This document shows, in pieces, positions 40,917-58,369 of a stretch of DNA of 64,000 nucleotides; within the stretch, counting starts at the first letter, position 1, and the number at the start of each line of letters is the position of its first letter. A program made the position numbers and the translations under genes. Source of the stretch: an uncultured Lachnospiraceae bacterium (lineage in GTDB: Bacteria; Bacillota; Clostridia; Christensenellales; UBA1242); contig CAYOOB010000003.1 of assembly GCA_964405555.1 (NCBI GenBank), positions 24,606 through 88,605 on the forward strand. Direction: 5' to 3'. Below the pieces are notes generated by a model. The model saw only the letters and a program-made list of their open reading frames with translations, was not told where the DNA came from and did not search any database.

Positions 40917-40992
40917 GACCTCGTAGTAAAACTGGATATTACGGCCCCCTCCTAAGGGGTTGTTCTGGGTTCGAGTCCCGGCGGGGTCACCA
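40917..40992 (+). tRNA. tRNA-Arg (anticodon CCT)
   Basis: Hand-folded cloverleaf. Acceptor gacctcg/cggggtc, D-stem gtaa/ttac, anticodon stem gcccc/ggggt, loop ctCCTaa. T-arm ctggg-ttcgagt-cccgg, discriminator A, encoded CCA. 76 nt. Confidence 0.85.
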
Positions 40993-40993
40993 A
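40949..40993 (+). repeat. attL: 45-bp direct repeat (3' part of tRNA-Arg from the anticodon loop to CCA+1)
   Basis: ctcctaaggggttgttctgggttcgagtcccggcggggtcaccaa, identical to 58325-58369. Confidence 0.9.
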
Positions 40994-41257: not shown

Positions 41258-41740
41258 TTATATAAAAATTTTTTCCATAACATCTATTGAGTTGTCAATA
41301 TCTTGACAATAGTGTGTGTAAATTTTTAGTGTTATATCACTGTTGGCGTGTCCTGCAAAATGGGGTTGATATTTAAGCCATGGGTATTTCTTTTCTACTT
41401 CATTTCTTTCGGACTTATTCAGTGTTTCAGGCTTAATAATTTCTCCTATTTGCATATAGCCCCAGATTACATGTTTGCCATTCTTATGATATTTATCATT
41501 GATAATGTCCTCATACCAGCCATAAAACAAAAATAAGTCGCCAACTCCCACTCCATTCTTTTCTAAATGAGCTTGAAAGCCTTTGATTTGCCCTAAACTA
41601 CCTTTAAAGTTTTCGCAATTAAAATAATTTTCTAATTGCGGGTCAAGGTGACAGTGAGTTTGTGGGTCAATGTGACAGTGAGTTTTTAAAAATGGTTTGT
41701 TTTGTTCTTTGACTTCAATAACTCTATTCAAAAATGGCAA
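41258..41740 (-). pseudogene. chimeric ORF: unknown N-terminal domain fused to the last ~32 codons of a tyrosine integrase (integrase remnant next to attL)
   Basis: The C-terminus ..AGHANSDITLKIYTHYCQDIDNSIDVMEKIFI carries the G-H-x(n)-Y-x-H catalytic-Tyr motif. It parallels the tail of the intact Int (..AGHSKALKTSDFYSHFIKNSDIHASEILNKIFE). The upstream 128 aa are unrelated and contain a 24-bp tandem duplication (41641-41688). Confidence 0.6.
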
Positions 41741-42387: not shown

Positions 42388-45300
42388 ATGCAAACGCTTC
42401 TAAATGATTTTTGTTTTTCAGAAGAAAAAGCTGGGCTACTTCTAGTTGATTTACCAACAGGAACTGGGAAAACTCACAATGCGGTTGAGTTTATATATAG
42501 AAATTATGAAAAAGTAAAAAATAAAATAATCTTTATTACTAATTTAAAGAAAAATCTTCCTATTGCCAAACTAAAAGAATTTTTTGAAAAGGACAATAGG
42601 CTTGATGATTTTGAAAAAGATGTATTGTTTATAGATAATAATGTCGATACACTTATAGATCACTTCAATGAAGTTGATAGTGGCAATAAAATCCCTTATG
42701 CTAAGTTTAATAAAAATGGAACCATATTCAATGTAAAACGCTGTATTAAAATTATCAATACATTGAAAGAAAGTTTAAACAATAAGAAACCAACCGATAT
42801 GGATGCATTTGTCTCAAAAGAAAATGCTTATTTTATGATTAATCAAGCAAGAGAAGATTTACGAGACAAATATGAAAAAGAGCTAAGAGAAGTTATTGAA
42901 GAAGTTCTGCGATTTGATAATGAAGGCAAACGAAGGTCTAAAGCACAAAAATTGGATTTAATAAAAAATGATCCAGATTACCAATGGATTTCAGTTCTCT
43001 ATCCAGCAGTAAACACAGACGATAAAAAGATTATATTTATGAGTACTGATAAATTTTTAGTTAGAAACTCTACAATCGTTGAACCATCATATAATATCAT
43101 TGACAACAAATCACTTCTTAACGAATCTATTGTTTTCATTGATGAATTTGATGCCAGCAAAGACATTATATTAAAGAACATCATAAATGAAAGTTTGGAT
43201 ACTAAAGTTAATATCATTGAGCTCTTTCGAATAATATATTCAGGTTTGGAAAACACTTCTTTTTCTAAGTTATTAACAGATGTTTCTGCAACATTAAAAA
43301 ATAAAATTGAGAAAAAAGAAAGAAAATATTACACACCAGATGAAATTATTGGAGAGTTTAGAGCAAGTGCGAAAGAGATAGCAGAAAAATATAATCTCGT
43401 AAATTATCATAAACTTGAGGAATCTGAAAAAGAGAGAGCAAATTTTCTTTTTCAAGACTACAAATTTCACACAATTTTAGGAGATGCTAAAAATTGCGTT
43501 TATCTAGACAATGATGAAGACTTTAAAATTAACTGGATAAAAAGAGCTAATGATATGAACATTTTGGAGAACCAAAATTTGTTTATGCTTTTGCAAGATA
43601 TTAAGTCTTTTTTAGCATATTTTCAAAATGGCATAAAGTTTATTGCAGATAACTATCGTAATCTAAAAAAAGAGCGTAAACAAGAAACAAATAATTTTTC
43701 TTATGAAGCATCAATTAAAACTGCACTTGCGGAATTTGGGATTGAAGGTAAATATTTGAATTATTTGACAAGTCAAATTATGAATACAAGAAAGGCTCGC
43801 TCTTATAAAATTGTTGATCTGAAAAGTGAACTAGACTTCTCGGTTTATGAAAAAGGGTTTAGATTCTACAATTTTATTGACAGTGATACTTTTGATACAC
43901 AGTCAAAAATCAATTTACTATCATTCAATATGTCGCCAGAGAAAATACTAATTTATTTATGTAGCAATGCCAAAGTTGTTGGAATTTCAGCTAGCGGTAC
44001 TCTTGAAACAGTAACTGGAAACTATGACTTGGGATATATAAAAAGGAAACTCGGCAAACTCTTTTACGAGATTGATGAAAAAGAAAAAGGAAGAATCAAT
44101 AATTTTATTATAAAACAACTAGGTAATTATAAAAATGTACAAATAGATATAGATAAATGCCAAATTACTAATAAAAACTACACTGATGTAATGTTAAAAA
44201 TTTTTGACGAACATATAAGTGAAAATATCTTAAACAAAATTTCGGAATATTCTACTGATGATTTTGTTAAAGCGAGATACTGTAAAATTGCTTATGCTAT
44301 TAACGAATTCTTTAGTCGCGGCATTAAGTCTTTTCTCTTTCTAACAAATGTGTCTATGAATAATAGTCTTGAGTTTAACTATAATTGCATAAATTATATT
44401 TTTGATATTTTAAAACCAAATGATTTAAGCAATGTATATTGTTATGCGTTAGAGGGATCTCTCGAAAAATTTGAAAATTTAAAACAAGCAGTAAAAGATA
44501 AACTTAAAAGTGGGAAACGGGTCTTTGTTGTTTCGACTTATCAAACATTAGGTGCCGGTCAAAATTTGCAATACGAGTATGATGACAATTATGAAGGTTT
44601 GTTAGAAACAATAAATGATAATACATATAGCAAAAAGCAAAAAGATTTCGAAGCATTGTTTTTAGATAAGCCTACTAATATGTTTGTTAATATGAATTCC
44701 AATCCAAATGAGGAACAACTTATTAAGTTTATTTATCAAGTAAAATGCTTAGAGGAAACAGGTTATTTCGATGTTGAAGAAGCTACGAGAGAAATTAAAA
44801 AAGGAATTAAAATACTGTACCATGCCTCTTCACAAGGTATTTCAACTCCCAGGTCAAAACATATTTATATGCACACTGCAAAGATAATTTTACAAGCGAT
44901 TGGAAGAATATGCCGTACAAATAATAAGAATAAAAATATATTTATTTCATTTGATTGTCAAATGGAATATGATTTAGCATATTGCAAAAATGAGCTTTTA
45001 AAAAGACCGATGAATTATGAATTGAAAGAGCTTCTAAATAAATGTGAGAATGTAAAAGAGGAAGTTGATAATTCGATTTTCAAAATCAATAATTCAAAAA
45101 TAAAAAAGAATTCAGATAAGATAGATTCTTTGTTGCATTTCAAATCCAATACTGATATTTCAAAATGGGAAGAATTGAGAGATATTGTATTAAAATATCC
45201 TTATGATAATGAAGGAATTCACAATGAATATGACATCTATTGTGAACTTAAAGAACCGAGTAGTTACTATTATTATAATAAGGATCAGAATGGAGAATAT

Positions 45301-45849
45301 AATATAACTTACGAAAAAGTTAATGATTATTGTATATCTGCAGATTTTGCAAATCTAAAAACCTTAATGTCAATCAAAGAAATAAAAACCTATTTTGAGG
45401 ATATGGGATATGCTACAACTCTCGAAAAATCCTCTTATATTTTATTACCTAATGTTTTTACGCGAATTTATCTTGGAGCCTTAGGCGAATCTGTTGGTGA
45501 ATATTTAATTAATAGGTTCCTTAATCAATACGATTTAAAACTTGAAAGAATAAGAGATGTCAATAGATACGAAAAGTATGATTTTGTTTTTGATAATGAT
45601 AAATATGTGGATTTTAAATATTGGAATGGGAATTTTGATAAAGATAGACAGAGAGAAGTTGAAAGATGTATTAGAAAACTAAATGAATGTGATGGAAAAT
45701 ATGGTTTCATAATTAATATACTAAAACCTAAAAATTATGATCCAAAACAATATGTTAGTCCAGATGAAAGGCTTACAATAATTCCATATCTATATGATCC
45801 TGAAACAAAAAAATGGAACCTAAAAGATCTTGAAAAATTGTTACATTAA
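42388..45849 (+). CDS. SF2 helicase (DinG/XPD-like motif set) fused to a C-terminal PD-(D/E)xK-like nuclease domain
   Basis: Motif I DLPTGTGKT (aa ~21), motif II VFIDEFDAS (aa ~250), motif III GISASGTL (aa ~532). Motif V-like VSTYQTLGAGQNL and motif VI LQAIGRICRT (aa ~835). C-terminal GALGESVGEY..YEKYDFVF..YVDFKYW (E...D...DxK, aa ~1030-1080). AAAGGAG RBS. Confidence 0.7.
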   Translation: MQTLLNDFCFSEEKAGLLLVDLPTGTGKTHNAVEFIYRNYEKVKNKIIFITNLKKNLPIAKLKEFFEKDNRLDDFEKDVLFIDNNVDTLIDHFNEVDSGNKIPYAKFNKNGTIFNVKRCIKIINTLKESLNNKKPTDMDAFVSKENAYFMINQAREDLRDKYEKELREVIEEVLRFDNEGKRRSKAQKLDLIKNDPDYQWISVLYPAVNTDDKKIIFMSTDKFLVRNSTIVEPSYNIIDNKSLLNESIVFIDEFDASKDIILKNIINESLDTKVNIIELFRIIYSGLENTSFSKLLTDVSATLKNKIEKKERKYYTPDEIIGEFRASAKEIAEKYNLVNYHKLEESEKERANFLFQDYKFHTILGDAKNCVYLDNDEDFKINWIKRANDMNILENQNLFMLLQDIKSFLAYFQNGIKFIADNYRNLKKERKQETNNFSYEASIKTALAEFGIEGKYLNYLTSQIMNTRKARSYKIVDLKSELDFSVYEKGFRFYNFIDSDTFDTQSKINLLSFNMSPEKILIYLCSNAKVVGISASGTLETVTGNYDLGYIKRKLGKLFYEIDEKEKGRINNFIIKQLGNYKNVQIDIDKCQITNKNYTDVMLKIFDEHISENILNKISEYSTDDFVKARYCKIAYAINEFFSRGIKSFLFLTNVSMNNSLEFNYNCINYIFDILKPNDLSNVYCYALEGSLEKFENLKQAVKDKLKSGKRVFVVSTYQTLGAGQNLQYEYDDNYEGLLETINDNTYSKKQKDFEALFLDKPTNMFVNMNSNPNEEQLIKFIYQVKCLEETGYFDVEEATREIKKGIKILYHASSQGISTPRSKHIYMHTAKIILQAIGRICRTNNKNKNIFISFDCQMEYDLAYCKNELLKRPMNYELKELLNKCENVKEEVDNSIFKINNSKIKKNSDKIDSLLHFKSNTDISKWEELRDIVLKYPYDNEGIHNEYDIYCELKEPSSYYYYNKDQNGEYNITYEKVNDYCISADFANLKTLMSIKEIKTYFEDMGYATTLEKSSYILLPNVFTRIYLGALGESVGEYLINRFLNQYDLKLERIRDVNRYEKYDFVFDNDKYVDFKYWNGNFDKDRQREVERCIRKLNECDGKYGFIINILKPKNYDPKQYVSPDERLTIIPYLYDPETKKWNLKDLEKLLH

Positions 45850-45927
45850 AAATAACTTCTTAGAAAATTTTTATAAATTTTTTGAATTGATATGTTATAA
45901 TTCTAATATATTTAGTGAGGATGAAGC

Positions 45928-46902
45928 ATGCTAAAAACCTTTTTTGATTTCTGTTCTGGAATCGGTGCTGGCAGACTCGGACTTGAGTATTGCGGGTTAA
46001 CTTGTGTTGGTCATTCTGATACAAGCAGGCTGGCAGACACAACATACAGACTGTTACATAATGCATCAACAGACAAAAACTATGGAAATCTTAAGAAACT
46101 TGGAAAAGACAATTTGCCAGATTTTGATTTGCTAATAGCTGGCTTCCCTTGTCAAACTTTTTCAGTAATTGGGAAACAGGCAGGATTTAGTGATGACCGA
46201 GGTCAAATTATTTTTCATTTGTCAAGAATACTTAGAGAAATGCAGCCGAAGTGTTTTATTTTAGAAAATGTAAAAGGATTAGTATTGCATGATAACGGTA
46301 AAACCATCAAAAAAATTATTGAAGAATTGAATAGATCTGGATATTCTGTTGCCTACAAAGTGATTTCAAGTTTGAATTGTGGAGTTCCTCAAATGAGACA
46401 AAGAGTCTACTTTGTTGGCATTAGAAAGGATATTTGTAACAGTATAAATGACTTTGCTTGGCCGAAGGATATAGCAAAACCAGAATTAAACGATTTTTTA
46501 CCAGATCGTAAACAGATACAACCTGAGTTTTTGAACATTTTAATTCATTATTTAAAAAATTCAACAAATAACGGGAAATATACAGTACAAGATTTGCAAT
46601 GCATGAATGGAAAAATTCTAGATACAAGGATGAACGACCTAAGGATCTATGATGGAAAAGTTCCTACTCTCAGGGCTCAACGCGATGGCATATATTATGT
46701 TTTTAATAATACAATTTATCAACTAACAGGATGTGAAGCATTAATATTGCAGGGCTTTTCCCAAGAATATGTGGATAGAGTTAGGGATAAAGTTTCTGAT
46801 AGGCATTTGCTGATGCAAGCAGGGAATGCAATGACGGTAAATGTAATAACATTGATTGGACAATGTTTAATAAATTATCTAAAGAAAAAGGAGAACAAAT
46901 AA
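45928..46902 (+). CDS. DNA (cytosine-5)-methyltransferase, specificity unknown
   Basis: Motif I FFDFCSGIGAGRLG, motif IV GFPCQTFSVIGK, motif VI ENVKGL, motif VIII QMRQRVYFVG, motif X AGNAMTV. Confidence 0.9.
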   Translation: MLKTFFDFCSGIGAGRLGLEYCGLTCVGHSDTSRLADTTYRLLHNASTDKNYGNLKKLGKDNLPDFDLLIAGFPCQTFSVIGKQAGFSDDRGQIIFHLSRILREMQPKCFILENVKGLVLHDNGKTIKKIIEELNRSGYSVAYKVISSLNCGVPQMRQRVYFVGIRKDICNSINDFAWPKDIAKPELNDFLPDRKQIQPEFLNILIHYLKNSTNNGKYTVQDLQCMNGKILDTRMNDLRIYDGKVPTLRAQRDGIYYVFNNTIYQLTGCEALILQGFSQEYVDRVRDKVSDRHLLMQAGNAMTVNVITLIGQCLINYLKKKENK

Positions 46903-47693
46903 TGGCAATTTGGAAAGATTTTGAAATAGAGTGTACTAATTATTTAAATTCACAATTTGGTAAATTCGCAAAATTTACTCATCTTGGAGATAGTGATTCT
47001 ACAGTTGCAGACATAAAAGTAAACACTAAAAATAAAAAAGAGTTTTATATTGAATCGAAACATTCTCCAGCACAGTGTGGACAATTTGTTTTAATTCCAA
47101 ATATTAAAACTCATAAATTTGATTATAGTTCGTTAAATGTAAACAAAATAAATAAGTACTCTTCACAGATAATAGAACATATGAATAAAAATTTTAAAGA
47201 ATTTAAGGAAGCTGGTACAGCTGGCAAAGAAATTAAATTTGAAGGGTGTGAGAATGTCTTCTGTGGTTGGATTATTGATTATCATAAATCGAAAAATGTA
47301 AAATTTTTCATGACCAACAATAATATTATACTTCCGATAGAACAATTTGCAGAATTTTTCACAGTTACAGCTAAATATCGTATAAAACGTAGCGGTTCAT
47401 CTCCTGTTGGGAACTCAAATATTATAAATGTCAAAAATTATGTTAAAGAACATTTCAATATTCAACACATTGAAGTTGTAGGAGATAAAATATTTGTTAA
47501 ATCAAATGAAGAATTACATAATAAAAGATTTGTGATAAACGGATATGAGTATATGTTGTCGAAGCGTGATGGAGTTTACGAAATAAGAAAACTATCTAAT
47601 ACTTTTAACGCGAATGTTATATTTTCTATTGAATTAAAACCTGGAAAGCAGGGGCTAACAGTTTCGCAATTTATTGCTTTATTAAATTTATAA
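46902..47693 (+). CDS. putative type II restriction endonuclease (PD-(D/E)xK-like)
   Basis: Its ATG overlaps the MTase stop (TAATG), which implies translational coupling. The N-terminal FEIEC...VADIKV...EFYIESKH fits E...D...ExK. No family-level identification. Confidence 0.45.
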   Translation: MAIWKDFEIECTNYLNSQFGKFAKFTHLGDSDSTVADIKVNTKNKKEFYIESKHSPAQCGQFVLIPNIKTHKFDYSSLNVNKINKYSSQIIEHMNKNFKEFKEAGTAGKEIKFEGCENVFCGWIIDYHKSKNVKFFMTNNNIILPIEQFAEFFTVTAKYRIKRSGSSPVGNSNIINVKNYVKEHFNIQHIEVVGDKIFVKSNEELHNKRFVINGYEYMLSKRDGVYEIRKLSNTFNANVIFSIELKPGKQGLTVSQFIALLNL

Positions 47694-47981
47694 TATACTC
47701 TCCAAAAAGCTGATATACTTTTTAACCGCAAATTTATATGTGGATAGATAATATTTACCAATTGGTAGGTCTCCAACAAGGAGGTTTGCCATTTTTTCAT
47801 TTTGTCCAGAATTTTTGAATAGATCAAGGAGGCTTTCACATTTGTCTTTTCTATATTCTTCATCTATGTCACAATCTTTTATAGCATGTTCAATACGTTT
47901 TATCCTGGAAACATAATCGCTACAAAGTTTTTTGGGAGTGTTGTTTTGTTTTAAATAACGAACAAAGTCAAACTCAAGCAT
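47688..47981 (-). CDS. 97-aa protein translationally coupled to the M.HhaI-like gene; function unknown
   Basis: Its ATG overlaps the MTase TGA (ATGCTTGA). Its 3' end overlaps the convergent 46902-47693 gene by 6 nt. Confidence 0.5.
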   Translation of the reverse strand: MLEFDFVRYLKQNNTPKKLCSDYVSRIKRIEHAIKDCDIDEEYRKDKCESLLDLFKNSGQNEKMANLLVGDLPIGKYYLSTYKFAVKKYISFLESIL

Positions 47982-48960
47982 TGTCGTGACCTACTTTCTT
48001 GCCGATTTCGATTGCGATGTATTGCAAAACGTCAATAACAACAGAATTACCAAATTGTTTATATGCCTGATTTTTGTTTTTAGCCATTTTGTAGGTGTCT
48101 GGGAATCCCATTAATCTTGCACATTCACGAGGATGTAGCTTGCGTGGTCTACCATTAACCAAATAGCCTCCAGTTTTAGCGAAAACACCACCGCCATTAG
48201 CAGACAAAGTAATTGCTATGCCTTTTGTACTGTAGATTCGTTCACCTTGGCCACCTTTGTTTACAATTCCCAGTCTAATAGACTTGTTACTAAATTGGGA
48301 ATCATCTTTTACATTGTAATAAGTATCTGATCTTTCAACATACAAATTTGAAACTATTGACTCATCATTTAGCAAGAAATCTTGAACGTGTTTAGATAGC
48401 GGGAATGGTTTTGGGAAATTAAAACGACCACAATTTAATTCTTTCCTAAAGCAAACCATGTATATTCTCTCTCTTTTCTGTGGTATGCCATAGTCTGTTG
48501 CATTTAAGACTTTGTAATCAAAGGAGTAGCCTAATTCTTCCATGGTGGCTTTCACAACTTGCAATGTTTTACCGTTATCGTGAGCGGCAAAATTCTTAAC
48601 ATTTTCCATAAAGACAACTTTTGGTTTTTTACATTTTACTATTCTTGCAACATCAAAAAATAGAGTGCCTCGACTATCTTCAAAACCTCGTTGTTTTCCA
48701 CTTATAGAGAATGCCTGGCATGGAAACCCAGCACATAATATATCGTGATCGGGGATAGTATTTTCATCCACCTTGGTAATATCGCCCTCTGGTATATCTC
48801 CAAAGTTTTCATTGTAGACTGTCTGTGCAAATTTGTCCCATTCGTTGGAATACACACATTTTGCTCCTAAAGATTCCAGAGCTAACCTAAAACCACCTAA
48901 TCCTGCAAATAAATCAATAAATGTGCAATATGAAAGAGTCTTCTCTTTTATTTCGATCAT
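47974..48960 (-). CDS. DNA (cytosine-5)-methyltransferase, M.HhaI-like (predicted GCGC specificity)
   Basis: From MIEIKEKTLSYCTFIDLFAGLGGFRLALESLGAKCVYSNEWDK through GFPCQAFSISGKQRGFEDSRGTLFFD, ENVKNF, QKRERIY and QFGNSV, it tracks the M.HhaI sequence as I recall it. This includes the target-recognition loops RLGIVNKGGQGERIYSTKGIAITLSANGGGVFAKTGGYL. Start set at 48960 (GGAGGT RBS). Confidence 0.85.
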   Translation of the reverse strand: MIEIKEKTLSYCTFIDLFAGLGGFRLALESLGAKCVYSNEWDKFAQTVYNENFGDIPEGDITKVDENTIPDHDILCAGFPCQAFSISGKQRGFEDSRGTLFFDVARIVKCKKPKVVFMENVKNFAAHDNGKTLQVVKATMEELGYSFDYKVLNATDYGIPQKRERIYMVCFRKELNCGRFNFPKPFPLSKHVQDFLLNDESIVSNLYVERSDTYYNVKDDSQFSNKSIRLGIVNKGGQGERIYSTKGIAITLSANGGGVFAKTGGYLVNGRPRKLHPRECARLMGFPDTYKMAKNKNQAYKQFGNSVVIDVLQYIAIEIGKKVGHDNA

Positions 48961-49243
48961 TTTAACCTCCGAATCTGTCATATTATAGCACACTGCGCTA
49001 TAAATTCCAACTAATTTCAACCAACTAATTTCAACCAAAAACAGTAAAAACTTATAATTTAATCTGTTGGTTTTCAAATGCAATAGTGTATAATCATATT
49101 GTGAGGAAATATATGAACAATAATAATGAAATTGACATTTTGGACTAGGACATATACAGAGAAGTGCTCCTATATAGTAGAGGGTTGCTTCAAAAAAGAG
49201 CTCGTTTGAATTAATCCTCTAAATTATTTAGGAGGATTTTTTT

Positions 49244-49489
49244 ATGATAGAAAACAAATTATTAACTACAGCAGACATAGAGAACATGTCGCTAAAACAG
49301 TTTCTAAAATACAAAGTTGACACTTCAGAAAGAATATTAATAGCAGCGCAAGAATTGCTTTGTGCCAATGAAGACTGGCTTTTAATTAACGAATTAGAAC
49401 ATGTGGAAACAGTAAAGGAACTATTTCATATTGTTAGACAAGCAAAAGAGGATCTTTGGTTCGATGTACAACGTAGAAAACGAGGTTAA
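49244..49489 (+). CDS. hypothetical 81-aa protein (island)
   Basis: AGGAGG RBS and coding-like composition. No motif recognised. Confidence 0.45.
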   Translation: MIENKLLTTADIENMSLKQFLKYKVDTSERILIAAQELLCANEDWLLINELEHVETVKELFHIVRQAKEDLWFDVQRRKRG

Positions 49490-50886: not shown

Positions 50887-52278
50887 ATGCCATGTATTAA
50901 AAAGAATGTGTTAGACACGGGTGCGATTTCATATCGCATCCAAGTCAAAGCGAAGAATGAAAGGACTGGAAAGTTTGAGGCGAAAGTGATGACTTGCAGG
51001 AAGCCAGCAGAACTCACAGAAAGGCAATATAAACGAGAACTGCAAAGAATAGCATTTGAATTCGAAGATAAGTTCCGCAAGTCTATGAATGGCTTGCTTG
51101 CCGTAGATAATGACATATTATTCATAGATCATGCCAACAAGTGGTTAGAAAAAGTTAAGAACACAAAATCGCTCAACTATTATGTTAAAGGTAAGGACAG
51201 TATCAAAAAGTTCTATGCTTACTTTGGGAATATTAAACTAAATCAAATCACACCAGTTATGGTCCAAGGGTTCTTGGATGAAATGAGTTTTAAAAAGGTT
51301 GAAAAGAAAAGTGCTGTGATGATAAAAGATATAACTCAATATCTTAAATCACACTGCATTAAACTTGTAGATGCAACAAACAAAACTGGCATATCAAGAT
51401 CAATATTCTTCTCTGCAACAAGTGGCCATGGAATAAGAGTTGAAAATGCTGAGAGAATATGCCAAGAGTTGGGGTTAAATTATGACGAGTATTTTAAGAC
51501 TGAAATTGTCTCTCATCCTTACGCAAAAGAAACAATACTAAAACTTAAACGAACATTAGCAACAATTCTGGCAGAGGCTAAGAGACAAAGATTGGTTGAG
51601 CATAACTTTGCGAGCAGAGATTATATCGCACCAATACAAGGCTACAAGAAAGAAATACAAATCTTAAACGACAAGGAGGCAAAGATACTGGCACAGTATT
51701 TGGACACTGAACCAAATCCTCGCTGGAAGATTGCTCTATTAACTATCTTGTTTATGGGGTTAAGGCGTGGCGAACTCGCTGGACTTGAATGGCAAGACAT
51801 TGATTTTGAAAACAAAACAATGACAATTCAAAGATCGGTGCAAGATATTGTTGGATTTGGACTTATAACAAAAGATCCAAAAACCGAAAACTCAAAACGA
51901 ACAATATCAATGCCAGATAAACTTATAACTTACTTGAAAGAATATCAAGCATGGTGGGACAATCAAAAACATTACTTGGGCGACCGCTGGAAAGATACTG
52001 ATAGATTGTTCTGCACAGAAGATGGTAAAACAATTTCACCAGGACTATTTAGAGTGTGGTTGCAAAAGACACTGATAAAAGCGGGACTACCAAAAGTATC
52101 TCTCCACTCACTTCGTCACACCAATATAACATTGCAACTAATCGCTGGCGTAGATATGAAAACGGTGTCTGCTCGTGCTGGACATAGCAAAGCGTTAAAG
52201 ACAAGCGATTTCTATAGCCACTTTATAAAGAATTCAGATATCCATGCAAGTGAAATATTAAATAAAATTTTTGAATGA
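50887..52278 (+). CDS. int: tyrosine-type site-specific integrase
   Basis: Catalytic residues in order: LRRGELAGLEWQDIDF (Arg), HSLRHTNITL (H-x-x-R), AGHSKALKTSDFYSH (His...Tyr). The N-terminal arm-binding-like domain is SYRIQVKAKNERTGKFEAKVMTCRKP. Confidence 0.92.
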   Translation: MPCIKKNVLDTGAISYRIQVKAKNERTGKFEAKVMTCRKPAELTERQYKRELQRIAFEFEDKFRKSMNGLLAVDNDILFIDHANKWLEKVKNTKSLNYYVKGKDSIKKFYAYFGNIKLNQITPVMVQGFLDEMSFKKVEKKSAVMIKDITQYLKSHCIKLVDATNKTGISRSIFFSATSGHGIRVENAERICQELGLNYDEYFKTEIVSHPYAKETILKLKRTLATILAEAKRQRLVEHNFASRDYIAPIQGYKKEIQILNDKEAKILAQYLDTEPNPRWKIALLTILFMGLRRGELAGLEWQDIDFENKTMTIQRSVQDIVGFGLITKDPKTENSKRTISMPDKLITYLKEYQAWWDNQKHYLGDRWKDTDRLFCTEDGKTISPGLFRVWLQKTLIKAGLPKVSLHSLRHTNITLQLIAGVDMKTVSARAGHSKALKTSDFYSHFIKNSDIHASEILNKIFE

Positions 52279-52442
52279 TTATTAAATAATAATTAAAAAA
52301 CTTTGAGCGTTGTTAAGATTTACAGTAAAATAATTAGAATTGAGATTCGTAGATCTCAGACAACTTGAAATTTAGTGAAAATTCTTGTATAATAATACAA
52401 ATAGTGTTATTAGGTACAAACATTGTTGTAATGGAGGAATTA

Positions 52443-55400
52443 ATGAACGAATCAAATGAAAGGGTACAGTTTATTTCTGATTATATTATCTCTTATGAAA
52501 ACAAAATTAAAATATTAAATAAAGAAGGGTTGTTTGATGCGGCAAAATTGTTTGAACTTTTTGCAATCAAGGTTTGTTCTTTATACTTTAAACAAGAATT
52601 TTTTAACCTAAATGTTAATACGTTTCAATATCCTTGTGTTGATTTAATATCTGAAGATAAGAATTTATTTGTTCAAGTTAGTACAGTTCAAGATGTACCA
52701 ACGAAAATTAAAAATACTTTAGAATCTATCAGAGATTCTAAACATGAAAACATAAAGGATATAAAGAACGTAATTTTCTTTTTGCTTAGCAATGATAGTA
52801 TCAACAATGTAGTGGATTATAAAGGTGAGAACAAAATTGGTAATTTTGAATTTATTAAAAAAGAAAATTTAATAACAACACGAGATGTCATTTATAAGGC
52901 AGAAGTGGATTTAGATTTTCAGTTAGGACTATATGATATTCTAAAAAAGGAAGAAGAAAGTGTTAAAACTAATTTAAAAAGTTTTAAAGAGGCATTAAGA
53001 GATAGTGCTACTTGTATTTCTTCTATTGAAGATAAGATCAACGGAGAATATAGTATTGATTTGTCTGAATATATAAATAATATTAGAGAACACAACCATA
53101 AAAATATTTTAATTGAAGGGAAAGCAGGCAGCGGGAAAACGGTTCTTTGTAAAAAGTTAGTTGAACAAGAAGAGATAGTGTTATTTGCAAGAGCTGAGAG
53201 ATTTTGTGAAGAAACTAATATAAACAGTATTTGGCATTTTAATTTAGATGAAACGCTAGAATATTTAAATAATAAAAAGATAGTTATATTTATAGATGCA
53301 TTAGAGTTTATTGCCGACAATAGAACTAAACTTGACATGTTAATGATGCTATATGAACGAACAAAAGATTATAGAAACGTATTTATAATTGTGTCTTGTA
53401 GAACTAGTGATAAATCAGCATTTATAAAATTGCAAAATGAATACTCTATTGTTAATTATGAGGTTGCAAACCTGAATCCAGAAATGCTAAAACCATTGGC
53501 GGATAAGTATTCAATCATAAGAGATATGCAGAATAACGATTTATACTCTGAGCTTTTAGGATCTCCATTTTACTTAAATATTATTATTTCAAATATGTCA
53601 ACACTGCAAAATATTTCAGACGAAAATCAACTTAGAGAATATATTTGGCAAAAGGTTATTAGTTTAAATGATAGTAATATTAGAGATGCTGTTAATAAAA
53701 TCGTTTTTGAAAGAGCTAAGAATTTTCTTGTTGGAGTACCTTGTGATGAAATAGATCCCGAGATTCTAAAAAAATTAGAATCAAATAATATAGTTACGTG
53801 TAATGATAAACGTGTCAGATTAAAGTATGATATTTTTGAAGATATATGTTTTGAGCAATATATCGACAAAGTTTTTTATGAATGCAAAGGTGATTATAAA
53901 ATATTTTTTGATAAATTAGAAAATATGGGTAGGTGTATATATAGACGATACCAAATTTGGATTGAAAATAAATTATTAGCAAAAAATAATAGAGACAAAT
54001 TTATTTATAGTTTATTATTTTCAAAAACTTTGCCTGATGAATGGCACAAACAAACTGAGATAGGGTTAGTTAAGTCAAGACATAGTGAAAGTTTCTTTAT
54101 TGAGAACGCGAATACTTTAATTAAAGAAAATCTTTTATTAGAATTTGTAAATATTACAAATTTGTATGGCTTTGAACTCGATGTACCTTTTTCTAGGGAC
54201 ATTTATTTAACCCTAAAAAATGCGGGAATTGGTAGAAAATGTTTAATTAATATTATAGCCGAAAACAATTTATATAAAACATGGACAGAGCCAGTTCAAC
54301 CATTAGAGAAGCTTGTAATTGACTATTCCCAAAATAAAGATTATGATGAAAGTACTGCAATAAATACAACAAAAATACTTGCTTATCTAATTGACGAAAT
54401 ACTGTTAAACAAGCCAAAAGAAAAATATTGGAGAGTTTTTGATTGTATAAAAGATAAACTAAGGGCTGTATACAAACTCGGAAACTATTGTAAAGATTGG
54501 ATTAATAATTTCTTCAACAAAGTAATAGATATGTTTAAGGGGCAAGATGACGATAAAGTAAGATTTGCTGAGGATGTAATAGAGAATATAATTAGTTATG
54601 AAAATTGTATATTGTCAAAATACATTCCTAATGAAGTATGTAACATTTTTGAATTATATTATACATTTAAGCGTAAACCTTCTAAAAATAACTTTTATAT
54701 CCCAGAAAACGAAAATAAAATATACTCATTGTATGGTTTGAATAAAAATGCAGAAAGTTATGACCATGAATCATTTAGGAAAGCCCCTCAAAATAGTAAC
54801 TTCGTATATATGTATTTTTGTTTTAACGGACTTCATGGACTAAAATGGATGGTTCAGTTTATTAATAAACTTGTGTTAAACTTTAAAAATAATAATAAAG
54901 GGTTACCAGAATTTACTGTTTACTTTGCAGAAACAAATAAAGAAAAGAAATATTTTGGATATTCGGATATGTGGCTTACAATGGTTCAAGAACATCAAGT
55001 TCCTACGCTTATTGCCGATATTGTGTATTCATTTAAAGAACTAATTAGGTTTTATATGAAAAATAATGACTTGTCAGTCACTCAAAAACTTAAAATTGCA
55101 AACAATATAAAAAATTACATTTATGAAAATTCGAACAATATTATATTGTTATCAATTATTTCAGAAGTTGGTATGGAATTTGAGCAGTTGTTACCAGGAT
55201 ATGCAATAGATTTAATTTCAAATATGGATATTGTTATCAATGATTTAACAAGATATTCTTTACAAATGCCTAATCCTTTAAGGAATAAGTTGGAAAATGA
55301 AATTATGATATCCGCGGGATTACCTTTTGGATTGAAACACAGGTACAAAGCGGTCAATAACAATATAAGTTTGCGAGAGTATGCCCGCAACTGCCAAATT

Positions 55401-57188
55401 GAACATGGAAAAAATATAAGGAAAAAAACTTTTGATATAATTGATTATTTATATAGAACAATTCCTGATGATCTTGAAAATTGTGAAAGGTATTTACAGC
55501 TCCAACAAATAGACATGAGAAAAGCCGAGGTACATAAGATTAATGATTCAACAATAGAGTCAATAACTGGTATGGCTAAACAGAAATCTGATAAACAAGA
55601 GAAATTAAACAGCAAATATATACCTCTGGTAAATAAATGTAATGACTTAAACAACAAAATAAAAGATAATACCATCATTCTTGATGACTATATCTCTTCT
55701 ATCAATTTATTGTTGTCTTATAAAGATGATCCATTATATTTTTCAATTGAGAATAATTTATTTGCATATATTTCTTTGGCTTTAAATGATCCGAATTTAG
55801 ACATTGTTAAGAGAGAAGAATATTGTAAATTGTGGATTGAAAATTCAAGTAAGTTAACTTTCAATGGATCAATGCTTGATTCTGAATTATTTACAATTTT
55901 GTTTAAACAAATTAACTTAGAAATTAATGGTATCTTAAAAAACGATATCAAACAAATTCTATTAGATCTAATTCTTTATGAAGGTCCTAATGGCAAGATT
56001 AGACAAATTGCGGTTTACGCAAAACAATATCTGAGAAATAATATACAAATTGCGACTTCTATTTTTTATACGATTTTAGCATTAGCAAAAGATGAAATGA
56101 ACCATCAAAAATATAACGCAAAGTATATAATAGAAAATAAATTAGAGGACAATTTTGTATTTAAACCTAATATGCAAGCGAAATTGGTTGGAGTAGATCA
56201 ATTTATTGAAAATGATGGTAAAAAGCTGTATTGTTCAAATGCTCAACAAATAATAAAGAAATATTTATACGATGAACAACAATTAGATTTAGACGACTTT
56301 AATTTATATGATTATGATATACATTTACTTAGCTATGCTCTTAACTGCGGGGTGACTCTAGATGGATCTATTTTTGATGACATTGTAAGACAATATATTG
56401 AATTTCTAATTCACTTTTGGCATGAAAACAAAGGGAACTATAGCAACCACGAAATTATCGGCGTGTATGAATTATATGAAGTACAGGAGTTTATACAAAG
56501 AGAAATATTGAGCAATTTAAATCAGACCAAAAAAGTATTAAGCTTAATGTTTGATAACATCGACTATTCTTTGTTTGAAAAAGAAACCGTAGAATTTTAT
56601 CTTGAAGTATTTGGTTGTTTATTGTCCTATTACTTTGATTCTTATGATAATGCTCAAAAAAGACAAAATTGTGAAGAAATAATAGAATTATTAGCAGAAA
56701 AAATTAATGCTATAAACGACGTAAATTTACGTATAAATTTAACAAAATGTTTGATGTTTTGTTTAACTCGATATGGTGGATCGGGTGATTGGAGCAACTG
56801 TAAAGCTTCGTATTCATATAAGGATAAGCTGTTCCTAAATAAAGTGTTCGCTAATTACGGATATTATCATTTGGGAGAATTGTTGGAAGTCATTTATAAA
56901 ATGCATTTAGATGAATTATTACCAGAAATTCTATTATCTTTAAAAGAATCGTTTGAAAAAGCACCACGAGAAAGGAAATATGAATGGGATACAGAATCTT
57001 TATATAAGATAATTCTTGATAAATCATTTATAATAGACTCCATAATAAATAAATCATTCTTTAAATTTGCCAGAGATATAAAAGAAGATAATGATTTAAT
57101 TGCTGCTTTTGAGTATATTTTAAACGTATTAGTAGAATATGGAAATGAAAAGGCCGCCGTCATTCTTGATGAATTTCGGATACACTAG
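52443..57188 (+). CDS. giant (1581-aa) P-loop NTPase: SMEK-like N-terminal domain + STAND/AAA-like NTPase + ~1250-aa uncharacterised C-terminal region
   Basis: Walker A IEGKAGSGKTVLCKKL (aa ~226), Walker B KIVIFIDALEF (aa ~280), sensor-like FIIVSCRTSDK (aa ~314). The N-terminal LFDAAKLFELFAIKVCSLYF..NLNVNTFQYPCVDLISEDKNLFVQVSTVQDVPTKIKNTLE resembles the SMEK-type domain of conflict-system NTPases (from memory). Start set at ATG 52443 (GGAGG 5 nt upstream). Confidence 0.65.
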   Translation: MNESNERVQFISDYIISYENKIKILNKEGLFDAAKLFELFAIKVCSLYFKQEFFNLNVNTFQYPCVDLISEDKNLFVQVSTVQDVPTKIKNTLESIRDSKHENIKDIKNVIFFLLSNDSINNVVDYKGENKIGNFEFIKKENLITTRDVIYKAEVDLDFQLGLYDILKKEEESVKTNLKSFKEALRDSATCISSIEDKINGEYSIDLSEYINNIREHNHKNILIEGKAGSGKTVLCKKLVEQEEIVLFARAERFCEETNINSIWHFNLDETLEYLNNKKIVIFIDALEFIADNRTKLDMLMMLYERTKDYRNVFIIVSCRTSDKSAFIKLQNEYSIVNYEVANLNPEMLKPLADKYSIIRDMQNNDLYSELLGSPFYLNIIISNMSTLQNISDENQLREYIWQKVISLNDSNIRDAVNKIVFERAKNFLVGVPCDEIDPEILKKLESNNIVTCNDKRVRLKYDIFEDICFEQYIDKVFYECKGDYKIFFDKLENMGRCIYRRYQIWIENKLLAKNNRDKFIYSLLFSKTLPDEWHKQTEIGLVKSRHSESFFIENANTLIKENLLLEFVNITNLYGFELDVPFSRDIYLTLKNAGIGRKCLINIIAENNLYKTWTEPVQPLEKLVIDYSQNKDYDESTAINTTKILAYLIDEILLNKPKEKYWRVFDCIKDKLRAVYKLGNYCKDWINNFFNKVIDMFKGQDDDKVRFAEDVIENIISYENCILSKYIPNEVCNIFELYYTFKRKPSKNNFYIPENENKIYSLYGLNKNAESYDHESFRKAPQNSNFVYMYFCFNGLHGLKWMVQFINKLVLNFKNNNKGLPEFTVYFAETNKEKKYFGYSDMWLTMVQEHQVPTLIADIVYSFKELIRFYMKNNDLSVTQKLKIANNIKNYIYENSNNIILLSIISEVGMEFEQLLPGYAIDLISNMDIVINDLTRYSLQMPNPLRNKLENEIMISAGLPFGLKHRYKAVNNNISLREYARNCQIEHGKNIRKKTFDIIDYLYRTIPDDLENCERYLQLQQIDMRKAEVHKINDSTIESITGMAKQKSDKQEKLNSKYIPLVNKCNDLNNKIKDNTIILDDYISSINLLLSYKDDPLYFSIENNLFAYISLALNDPNLDIVKREEYCKLWIENSSKLTFNGSMLDSELFTILFKQINLEINGILKNDIKQILLDLILYEGPNGKIRQIAVYAKQYLRNNIQIATSIFYTILALAKDEMNHQKYNAKYIIENKLEDNFVFKPNMQAKLVGVDQFIENDGKKLYCSNAQQIIKKYLYDEQQLDLDDFNLYDYDIHLLSYALNCGVTLDGSIFDDIVRQYIEFLIHFWHENKGNYSNHEIIGVYELYEVQEFIQREILSNLNQTKKVLSLMFDNIDYSLFEKETVEFYLEVFGCLLSYYFDSYDNAQKRQNCEEIIELLAEKINAINDVNLRINLTKCLMFCLTRYGGSGDWSNCKASYSYKDKLFLNKVFANYGYYHLGELLEVIYKMHLDELLPEILLSLKESFEKAPRERKYEWDTESLYKIILDKSFIIDSIINKSFFKFARDIKEDNDLIAAFEYILNVLVEYGNEKAAVILDEFRIH

Positions 57189-58324: not shown

Positions 58325-58369
58325 CTCCTAAGGGGTTGTTCTGGGTTCGAGTCCCGGCGGGGTCACCAA
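58325..58369 (+). repeat. attR: displaced 3' part of tRNA-Arg(CCT), 45/45 identical to 40949-40993
   Basis: The preceding sequence (..tatattttattg) cannot form the tRNA 5' half. Confidence 0.9.

Follow-up and report, generated by a model that had tools for sequence, protein, structure and literature searches.

This report concerns a four-gene module at positions 45928-48960 of the window, the whole 64-kb stretch of DNA analyzed here (contig CAYOOB010000003.1, from an uncultured Lachnospiraceae bacterium). We propose that the module is a complete Type IIP restriction-modification (R-M) system of the HhaI kind, directed at GCGC, and we put the probability of this explanation, with the proposed roles of its two accessory genes included, at roughly 0.7. 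Its core consists of a nuclease (R) and a C5-cytosine methylase (M2), which are orthologous to R.HhaI and M.HhaI. In addition, it carries a second methylase (M1), very probably also of GCGC specificity, and a small protein of 97 amino acids (aa), S97, a proposed regulator or DNA reader acting at a double-GCGC element in the M2 promoter. The four genes are intact and tightly packed, M1 and R on the plus strand and S97 and M2 on the minus strand:

45928-46902, plus strand: M1, C5-cytosine DNA methyltransferase, 324 aa
46902-47693, plus strand: R, R.HhaI orthologue, 263 aa
47688-47981, minus strand: S97, 97 aa, all-helical in the structural model
47974-48960, minus strand: M2, 328 aa from the MIEIK start, with a GGAGG ribosome-binding site

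All junctions were read directly in the sequence, which confirmed the packed layout with overlaps described in the initial annotation of this DNA. M1 and R have one base in common in TAATG (46900-46904), where the M1 stop codon TAA (46900-46902) runs into the R start codon ATG at 46902. The M2 stop and the S97 start overlap in ATGCTTGA (47974-47981, minus strand), and the convergent 3' ends of R (to 47693) and S97 (to 47688) overlap by 6 nt (47688-47693). The annotation had correctly placed the nuclease start at TAATG. Its length of 276 aa does not go with that start, as the 276-aa open reading frame (ORF) begins at the ATG at 46863 and the TAATG start gives 263 aa. The 263-aa form is likely the actual R protein, because GGAG lies 8-9 nt upstream of its start, most homologues are 263 aa long, and the alignment with R.HhaI begins at residue 4.

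R was found to be homologous to R.HhaI (PDB 6uke, 258 aa) across all three domains, with residues 4-247 aligned on 3-238 at 45% identity (E=8e-54), and it also matched the PADLOC profile REase_II PDLC03486 (E=1e-56). The catalytic residues of R.HhaI are E7, D34, E46, and K48, in the motif SD-X11-EAK, and its base contacts are S28, S30, Q53, Q56, R155, K157, S159, G160, and S161 (PMC7026639). R keeps the catalytic residues as E8, D37, E51, and K53 (SDSTVAD...ESK), which bears out the earlier assignment of this ORF to the PD-(D/E)xK nucleases. All base contacts are retained as well, namely S31, S33, Q58, Q61, R160, K162, S164, G165, and S166 (within SDS, QCGQ, and YRIKRSGS). R.HhaI A47 is replaced by S in R, and the contact at this position is made via the main chain only. 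The catalytic and base-contact positions were invariant in an alignment of 26 homologues. R should thus be a monomeric PD-(D/E)xK nuclease, predicted to cut unmethylated GCGC. It had been stated that no R.HhaI-sized gene is attached to M2; since the 263-aa ORF is an R.HhaI orthologue, such a gene is attached, and M2 would be its cognate methylase.

M2 aligned with M.HhaI (PDB 10mh) over its whole length (E=1e-158), with 73% identity over 322 residues and 64% in the recognition domain. Both recognition loops, GKGGQGERIYS and ITLSA.GGG, are identical to those of M.HhaI. The view of M2 as an M.HhaI orthologue that would methylate GCGC therefore stands. We predict that M2 methylates the inner cytosine (G5mCGC) and so acts as the cognate protector of R. 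An exact-sequence look-up of M2 in public assemblies returned no match.

To place the module among its relatives, we used the best 80 loci encoding an R homologue, with one genome per species, and mapped the window proteins onto them by tblastn; individual loci are designated by L numbers. The original H. haemolyticus HhaI locus is not among the 80. These loci are mostly from Clostridia, and also from Bacillales, Victivallaceae, Selenomonadaceae, and the Pasteurellaceae member Avibacterium gallinarum. In every complete contig among them, R has as its neighbour a convergent gene for an M2 orthologue (72-86% identical). The architectures form a nested series, from R/M2 alone (about 25 loci) through R/S97-M2 and the window type M1-R/S97-M2 to M1-R'-R/S97-M2 (9 loci). 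M1 is optional, being present in about 35 of the 80 loci and missing from at least 45 complete R-M2 loci. The annotation had found it unclear which methylase protects against the nuclease. M2 is the universal partner of R, and M1 very probably is a second GCGC methylase that also protects.

R' is a second HhaI-family nuclease paralogue of 272-290 aa, located between M1 and R and 33-36% identical to R (L016, L021, L026, L027, L032, L038, L039, L040, and L057). It has a 10-aa insertion in the third domain and keeps all catalytic and GCGC-contacting residues. On neighbour-joining trees, presence and absence of R' alternate between very close relatives, e.g., L017 versus L027. Many relatives also carry a helix-turn-helix (HTH, C-type) gene before M1 or R. 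The nearest relative, L001, is a Clostridia metagenome-assembled genome with 94-96% identity.

Two loci, L096 and L097, show other layouts of the same superfamily. In L096, two tandem 5-methylcytosine (m5C) methylases come after a C-type HTH gene, and in L097 a 28%-identical R-like gene is divergent from a 56%-identical M.HhaI-like methylase. We found no R homologue in phages and one distant homologue, without an annotated methylase, in plasmids. The latter is a 36%-identical HhaI-family nuclease homologue, annotated as hypothetical, on the Clostridium estertheticum plasmid pCF016-34 (L119, 5001-5792); no methylase is annotated within 5 kb, and the same 34-kb plasmid has a second matching place.

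The initial annotation counted two C5-cytosine methyltransferases, and M1 qualifies along with M2. M1 matched Pfam PF00145 (E=6e-65), and its m5C motifs are complete: FCSGIGAG (residue 8), GFPCQ (72), ENVKG (113), QMRQRVY (155), and AGNAM (298). It is 35% identical to M.HhaI, from which its recognition loops differ (DTRMNDLRIYDGKVPTLRAQRDG); the loops are strongly conserved among 39 M1 orthologues. All examined M1 orthologues with at least 65% identity lie directly upstream of R or R'. In L094, a 52%-identical M1 relative with the M1 loop motifs has a stop codon abutting the gene for a 252-aa R.HinP1I orthologue (PDB 1ynm, E=3e-100). HinP1I cleaves G^CGC. A second case, independent of L094, came from 72,556 plasmid-collection records, among which the best M1 match was a Mycoplasmopsis gallopavonis gene with 45.5% identity (the next at most 34.7%), again immediately upstream of a HinP1I-family nuclease. 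In Spiroplasma citri, the methylase partnering a HinP1I-family nuclease has M.HhaI-type loops. It appears, then, that two m5C recognition-domain lineages each pair with GCGC nucleases of two families, and that the module has one of each. As the M1-type domain stands upstream of HinP1I-family nucleases and R' keeps the HhaI recognition residues, M1 is very probably a second GCGC methylase. The M1 domain type repeatedly pairs with HhaI- and HinP1I-family nucleases, and an unrelated specificity of M1 was rejected. We also looked in tetranucleotide counts for the base methylated by M1, as an excess of GTGC/GCAC over GCGT/ACGC, and obtained no signal, all ratios being about 0.9-1.0.

Upstream of M1 we noticed a candidate promoter element:

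45893-45901, plus strand: extended -10 element TGTTATAAT, 26 nt upstream of the M1 ATG, assigned by its sequence to the M1-R operon

The element, as TGTTATAAT/TGCTATAAT, is conserved upstream of M1 in the relatives L001, L008, L009, L012, and L028, which are without C, and it probably drives the M1-R operon. Because the M1 stop overlaps the R start, every R translated from this operon comes with M1. M1 may have originated in a separate C-M1-R' unit, as the presence and absence of R' alternate between very close relatives, and it could be either a safety device or a remnant of that once-separate unit. A stronger form of the latter idea is that M1 is no working part of the module at all. It would then have survived from a separate C-M1-R' system after deletion of R', as an orphan joined to R that is redundant or has another specificity. 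The nine M1-R'-R relatives, the L017/L027 alternation, which suggests repeated R' loss, and the many relatives with an HTH (C) gene before M1 fit such a history. Against it, about 25 loci without R' retain an intact M1 whose recognition domain is strongly conserved, and M1 has kept the precise TAATG-type junction with R; moreover, such an origin of M1 would be compatible with a present function. We therefore regard a non-working M1 as unlikely, though it is the alternative that keeps the most weight.

The second accessory layer is S97 together with the promoter of M2, for which the following features were recognized:

49010-48982, minus strand: M2-S97 promoter, -35 box TTGGAA (49010-49005), 17-nt spacer, -10 box TATAAT (48987-48982)
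48986-49000, no strand assigned: operator-like element within the spacer of the M2 promoter, TAGCGC-N3-G(C>T)GCTA, abutting the -10 box

This promoter is the best sigma-70-like match in 45700-49300 (10/12), with TG before the -10 box. The M2 promoter of the relatives has the same architecture and is near consensus (TTGAAA or TTGACA, 17 nt, TATAAT). By aligning 120 nt upstream of M2 across the loci, we found in their spacers the element TAGCGC-N3-GCGCTATAAT, i.e., two copies of the system's own target GCGC at a distance of 7 bp, of which the second adjoins the -10 box. As a 21-bp duplex, the double-GCGC element reads TATAGCGCAGTGCGCTATAAT. Its layout is palindromic (GCGCA-N-TGCGC), and the proximal GCGC occupies positions -16 to -13, adjoining TATAAT. 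A cognate GCGC thus lies inside the methylase promoter spacer of the window (48995-48998), and the paired form is present in 45 loci.

The element goes with S97. Paired GCGC-N3-GCGC just upstream of TATAAT was present in 45 of the 51 S97-carrying loci, as against none of the 24 loci without S97 (contingency 45/6/0/24; Fisher p=2e-14, computed without formal phylogenetic correction). Elsewhere in about 1 Mb of these loci, the motif occurred once. In the neighbour-joining trees built for R and for M2, loci of either state are intermingled (L050/L058, L076/L077, L022/L054-55, L034/L060, and L030/L078), so that many independent co-losses or co-gains, rather than a single clade, account for the association. 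In loci that lack S97 or have a degraded copy (L018, L033, L023, L030, L042, and L053), the element position has GTGC, GCAC, or GTAC, the products expected from deamination of a methylated inner cytosine.

S97 gave no match in Pfam, NCBIfam, or PADLOC. Its family has 233 representatives in a library of 1.8 billion proteins, with D22, S25, R26, K28, E31, LPIG (72-75), Y77, K88, and Y89 invariant. The AlphaFold2 model is all-helical, with seven helices and a predicted local distance difference test score of 89.5. A profile of the family against PDB sequences returned noise only (E=0.017 at best; an integrase N-terminal domain reached E=1.2). An HNH_2 nuclease, a GmrSD/NsnA-like protein, and several HNH-like proteins carry the S97 domain at the N-terminus, and the two nuclease fusions with visible neighbourhoods have no methylase nearby. 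Distant free-standing S97-like genes lie directly upstream of other m5C methylases (L125 and L129), and further distant members lie in prophages, between terminase and portal genes. In the prophage loci L126-L128, this is a 101-aa gene (3501-3806 in L126 and L127) between the large terminase and portal genes, with no methylase nearby.

Taking these results together, we propose the following mode of action. In a naive cell, the strong unmethylated M2-S97 promoter would fire, and M2 would methylate the genome plus the two GCGC sites in the promoter. S97, produced in a fixed ratio with M2, would recognize the methylated element and lower transcription. A naive or under-methylated cell would accordingly show high expression, which would be low after methylation of the promoter sites, and replication would transiently lift the repression by S97. 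R would be supplied by the weaker M1-R operon, always along with M1. The convergent 3' overlap may, more speculatively, add transcriptional interference together with a hairpin found by a pattern scan only:

47763-47791, plus strand: terminator-like hairpin 3' of R and within the S97 coding region of the opposite strand, a 12-pair stem followed by the T-run TTTTTTCATT

The direction in which S97 would depend on methylation is the least secure step of this scheme. We further suggest, as a tentative extension that we hold to be somewhat doubtful, that S97 founds a new family of small helical readers of 5-methylcytosine (5mC) DNA. The free-standing form would shut the methylase operon once the genome is protected, and the N-terminal domain would direct HNH/GmrSD-type nucleases to methylated foreign DNA.

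Several observations weigh against our explanation. On the side of M1, its loops are not those of M.HhaI (DTRMNDLRIY versus GKGGQGERIY, and PTLRAQRDG versus ITLSAYGGG), and its GCGC specificity is assigned through guilt by association. S97 has no recognizable DNA-binding fold in its model, in Pfam, or by Foldseek, where the model gave no match below E=1 against PDB and BFVD, and it is only mildly basic (pI 8.4). The p value for the link between S97 and the element is, as said, uncorrected for phylogeny. No C (HTH) gene lies upstream of M1-R in the window, where the 78 nt between the preceding helicase gene and M1 are without an ORF. In the window promoter, finally, the distal GCGC (48995-48998) is intact and the proximal one (48988-48991, gene strand) has decayed to GTGC, so that the proposed switch may be impaired here; in L001, both sites are intact. 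The same C-to-T change also makes a TGnTATAAT extended -10, and L040 has acquired it independently. It could be an up-promoter or regulator-escape mutation.

The position of the element also admits a reading without S97, and this too counts against our scheme. RNA polymerase could itself respond to GCGC methylation at the extended -10, as reported for CfrBI, or M2 could bind its own sites and tune the promoter, while S97 has some other role, e.g., as a methylase cofactor. The proximal GCGC at -16 to -13, beside TATAAT, suits this idea, and control by cognate-site methylation in methylase promoters is described as a known mode in PMC3874152. Yet the element never occurs without S97 (0/24) and, with M2 still in place, decays in loci where S97 has been lost or has degenerated, which makes an S97-independent element quite unlikely in our judgment. 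Alternatively, S97 might be a plain autorepressor on the unmethylated element, with methylation blocking its binding. A palindromic GCGCA-N-TGCGC in a promoter spacer is indeed a typical repressor position. Such an arrangement would mean positive feedback, with S97 idle once the system is established, and it fits less well with the S97-like domains at the head of nucleases lacking a neighbouring methylase; we consider it improbable.

The module lies in an island at a tRNA gene, in which the following features were identified:

40917-40992: tRNA-Arg(CCT)
40949-40993, plus strand: left island boundary, 45-nt direct repeat that is the 3' part of tRNA-Arg(CCT)
41258-41740, minus strand: truncated Nmad3 ORF, 160 aa (Pfam E=7e-23)
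42388-45849, plus strand: DdmD-like helicase-nuclease, 1153 aa (PADLOC DdmD E=4e-33, positions 238-1107 of 1190)
50887-52278: tyrosine integrase
52365-57188, plus strand: Avs4-like STAND nucleoside triphosphatase, 1607 aa, directly downstream of the integrase, with an N-terminal SMEK domain (NCBIfam, E=2e-11) and an Avs4 body (PADLOC, E=1e-30)
58325-58369, plus strand: right island boundary, second and perfect copy of the 45-nt repeat

The perfect 45-nt repeats bracket a 17.4-kb island at tRNA-Arg, which contains the Nmad3 fragment, the DdmD-like gene, the present module, two small ORFs, the tyrosine integrase, and the Avs4-like STAND protein. Core genes (MarR, DegV, rplM, and rpsI) follow after the right boundary. 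Because the repeats bracket defence genes and housekeeping genes lie beyond them, the module is cargo of a mobile defence island. The integrase stands in the middle of the island and not beside the tRNA gene, which suggests a composite or tandem island. The C-terminus of the Nmad3 ORF resembles the end of a tyrosine recombinase (…HANSDITLKIYTHY…), and 24 nt are duplicated in tandem within the ORF (41636-41683). This ORF probably represents a gene fusion, now decayed, beside the attachment site.

No DdmE/Argonaute-like ORF adjoins the DdmD-like gene, which is a solo, separate defence gene and not a partner of M2. The nuclease had not been recognized as an R.HhaI orthologue in the initial annotation, and M2 was therefore suspected to be an orphan or to serve the helicase-nuclease. 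That M2 has such a role and the nuclease ORF is guarded by M1 alone, as the translational coupling of M1 with the nuclease and the helicase-nuclease 78 nt upstream of M1 might suggest, has a next to negligible probability: the nuclease is an R.HhaI orthologue, every complete locus pairs it with an M.HhaI orthologue (at least 45 of these loci are without M1), and the helicase-nuclease, which is DdmD-like and stands beside the module in only 1 of the 80 loci (L001), was rejected as a functional partner.

GCGC is avoided in the DNA around the module. The 64-kb window has 7 sites versus 35-48 expected (observed/expected [O/E] about 0.15), which places GCGC among the two most depleted tetranucleotides, and no site lies inside the module. 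This avoidance is in line with long exposure to a GCGC-cutting enzyme. GGCC is equally depleted in the window (O/E 0.12-0.14), with no GGCC system visible in the 64 kb, and CGCG, GATC, and CCGG are low as well; several restriction systems with 4-bp targets have probably acted on the host over a long time.

The core of the module is another HhaI isoschizomer system and as such ordinary, and the idea of an orphan M.HhaI is corrected. The architecture, with two GCGC methylases of different lineages plus S97 and its promoter element, is undescribed as far as the literature searched shows, and nothing relevant on a small regulator or a double-GCGC operator in HhaI-type systems was found there. The architectures around HhaI-family nucleases of Clostridia, Bacillales, and Pasteurellaceae are nested, from R/M2 through the addition of S97 and then M1 to that of C and R', and they show that accessory layers can be conserved in Type II systems regarded as 'simple'. 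The 97-aa protein, strictly coupled to a double cognate-site element, is a concrete and testable candidate for a 5mC-sensing feedback loop in bacteria, and the occurrence of its domain on nucleases without a methylase adds to the case for 5mC sensing. To our knowledge, sequence-specific bacterial 5mC readers that control transcription are essentially undescribed. If the proposal is true, a new 5mC reader domain would also be useful as a tool.

Comparison with known systems places the module as follows. B. subtilis BsuMI, in which a multi-subunit restriction complex is linked to two methylases, had been offered as a precedent. We rejected this analogy, since there is no multi-subunit nuclease here: R is a single gene of the monomer type, and the DdmD-like gene is linked in L001 only (1/80). 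As in C-protein systems, a small regulator gene is proposed in the module, and many relatives do have an HTH C gene before M1 or R; S97 differs from C proteins in having no HTH or Pfam match and in following the methylase gene rather than preceding the nuclease, and the window itself is without a C gene.

Type II systems with two methylases of one specificity include ScrFI, with two m5C methylases flanking R, and DpnII, with DpnM and DpnA. Regulation of ScrFI is cited in PMC3874152 (ref 172). The module resembles these systems in having methylase genes on both sides of a single nuclease gene, and the two methylases probably share the target of the nuclease. GCGC is fully symmetric, and the strand-specific division of labour argued for CCNGG is inapplicable to it. 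SciNI of Spiroplasma citri is counted with R.HinP1I as a HinP1I-type GCGC system. With this type the module has in common the recognition-domain type of M1, which precedes HinP1I-family nucleases in L094 and M. gallopavonis. In contrast to it, the module has no HinP1I-family nuclease, and M1 is coupled to one of the HhaI family.

In CfrBI and LlaDII, the promoter is controlled by methylation of a cognate site, according to PMC3874152 (refs 174-175). The module likewise has its own recognition sites inside the methylase promoter. It differs in that two sites in a fixed GCGC-N3-GCGC arrangement abut the -10 box and are strictly tied to an extra small protein, of a kind that CfrBI is not known to include.

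The closest parallel is the HhaI prototype of Haemophilus haemolyticus/parahaemolyticus, a 'simple, compact' system of two genes, in which R.HhaI cuts GCG^C and M.HhaI makes G5mCGC (PMC7026639). The module shares with it an orthologous R (45%), an orthologous M2 (73%), the adjacency of the two genes, and the avoidance of GCGC in host DNA. The HhaI host belongs to the Pasteurellaceae, whereas the module resides in a low-GC Clostridia-like genome. The module goes beyond the two-gene plan of HhaI with a further methylase gene preceding R, the 97-aa gene that follows M, and the double-GCGC element of the promoter.

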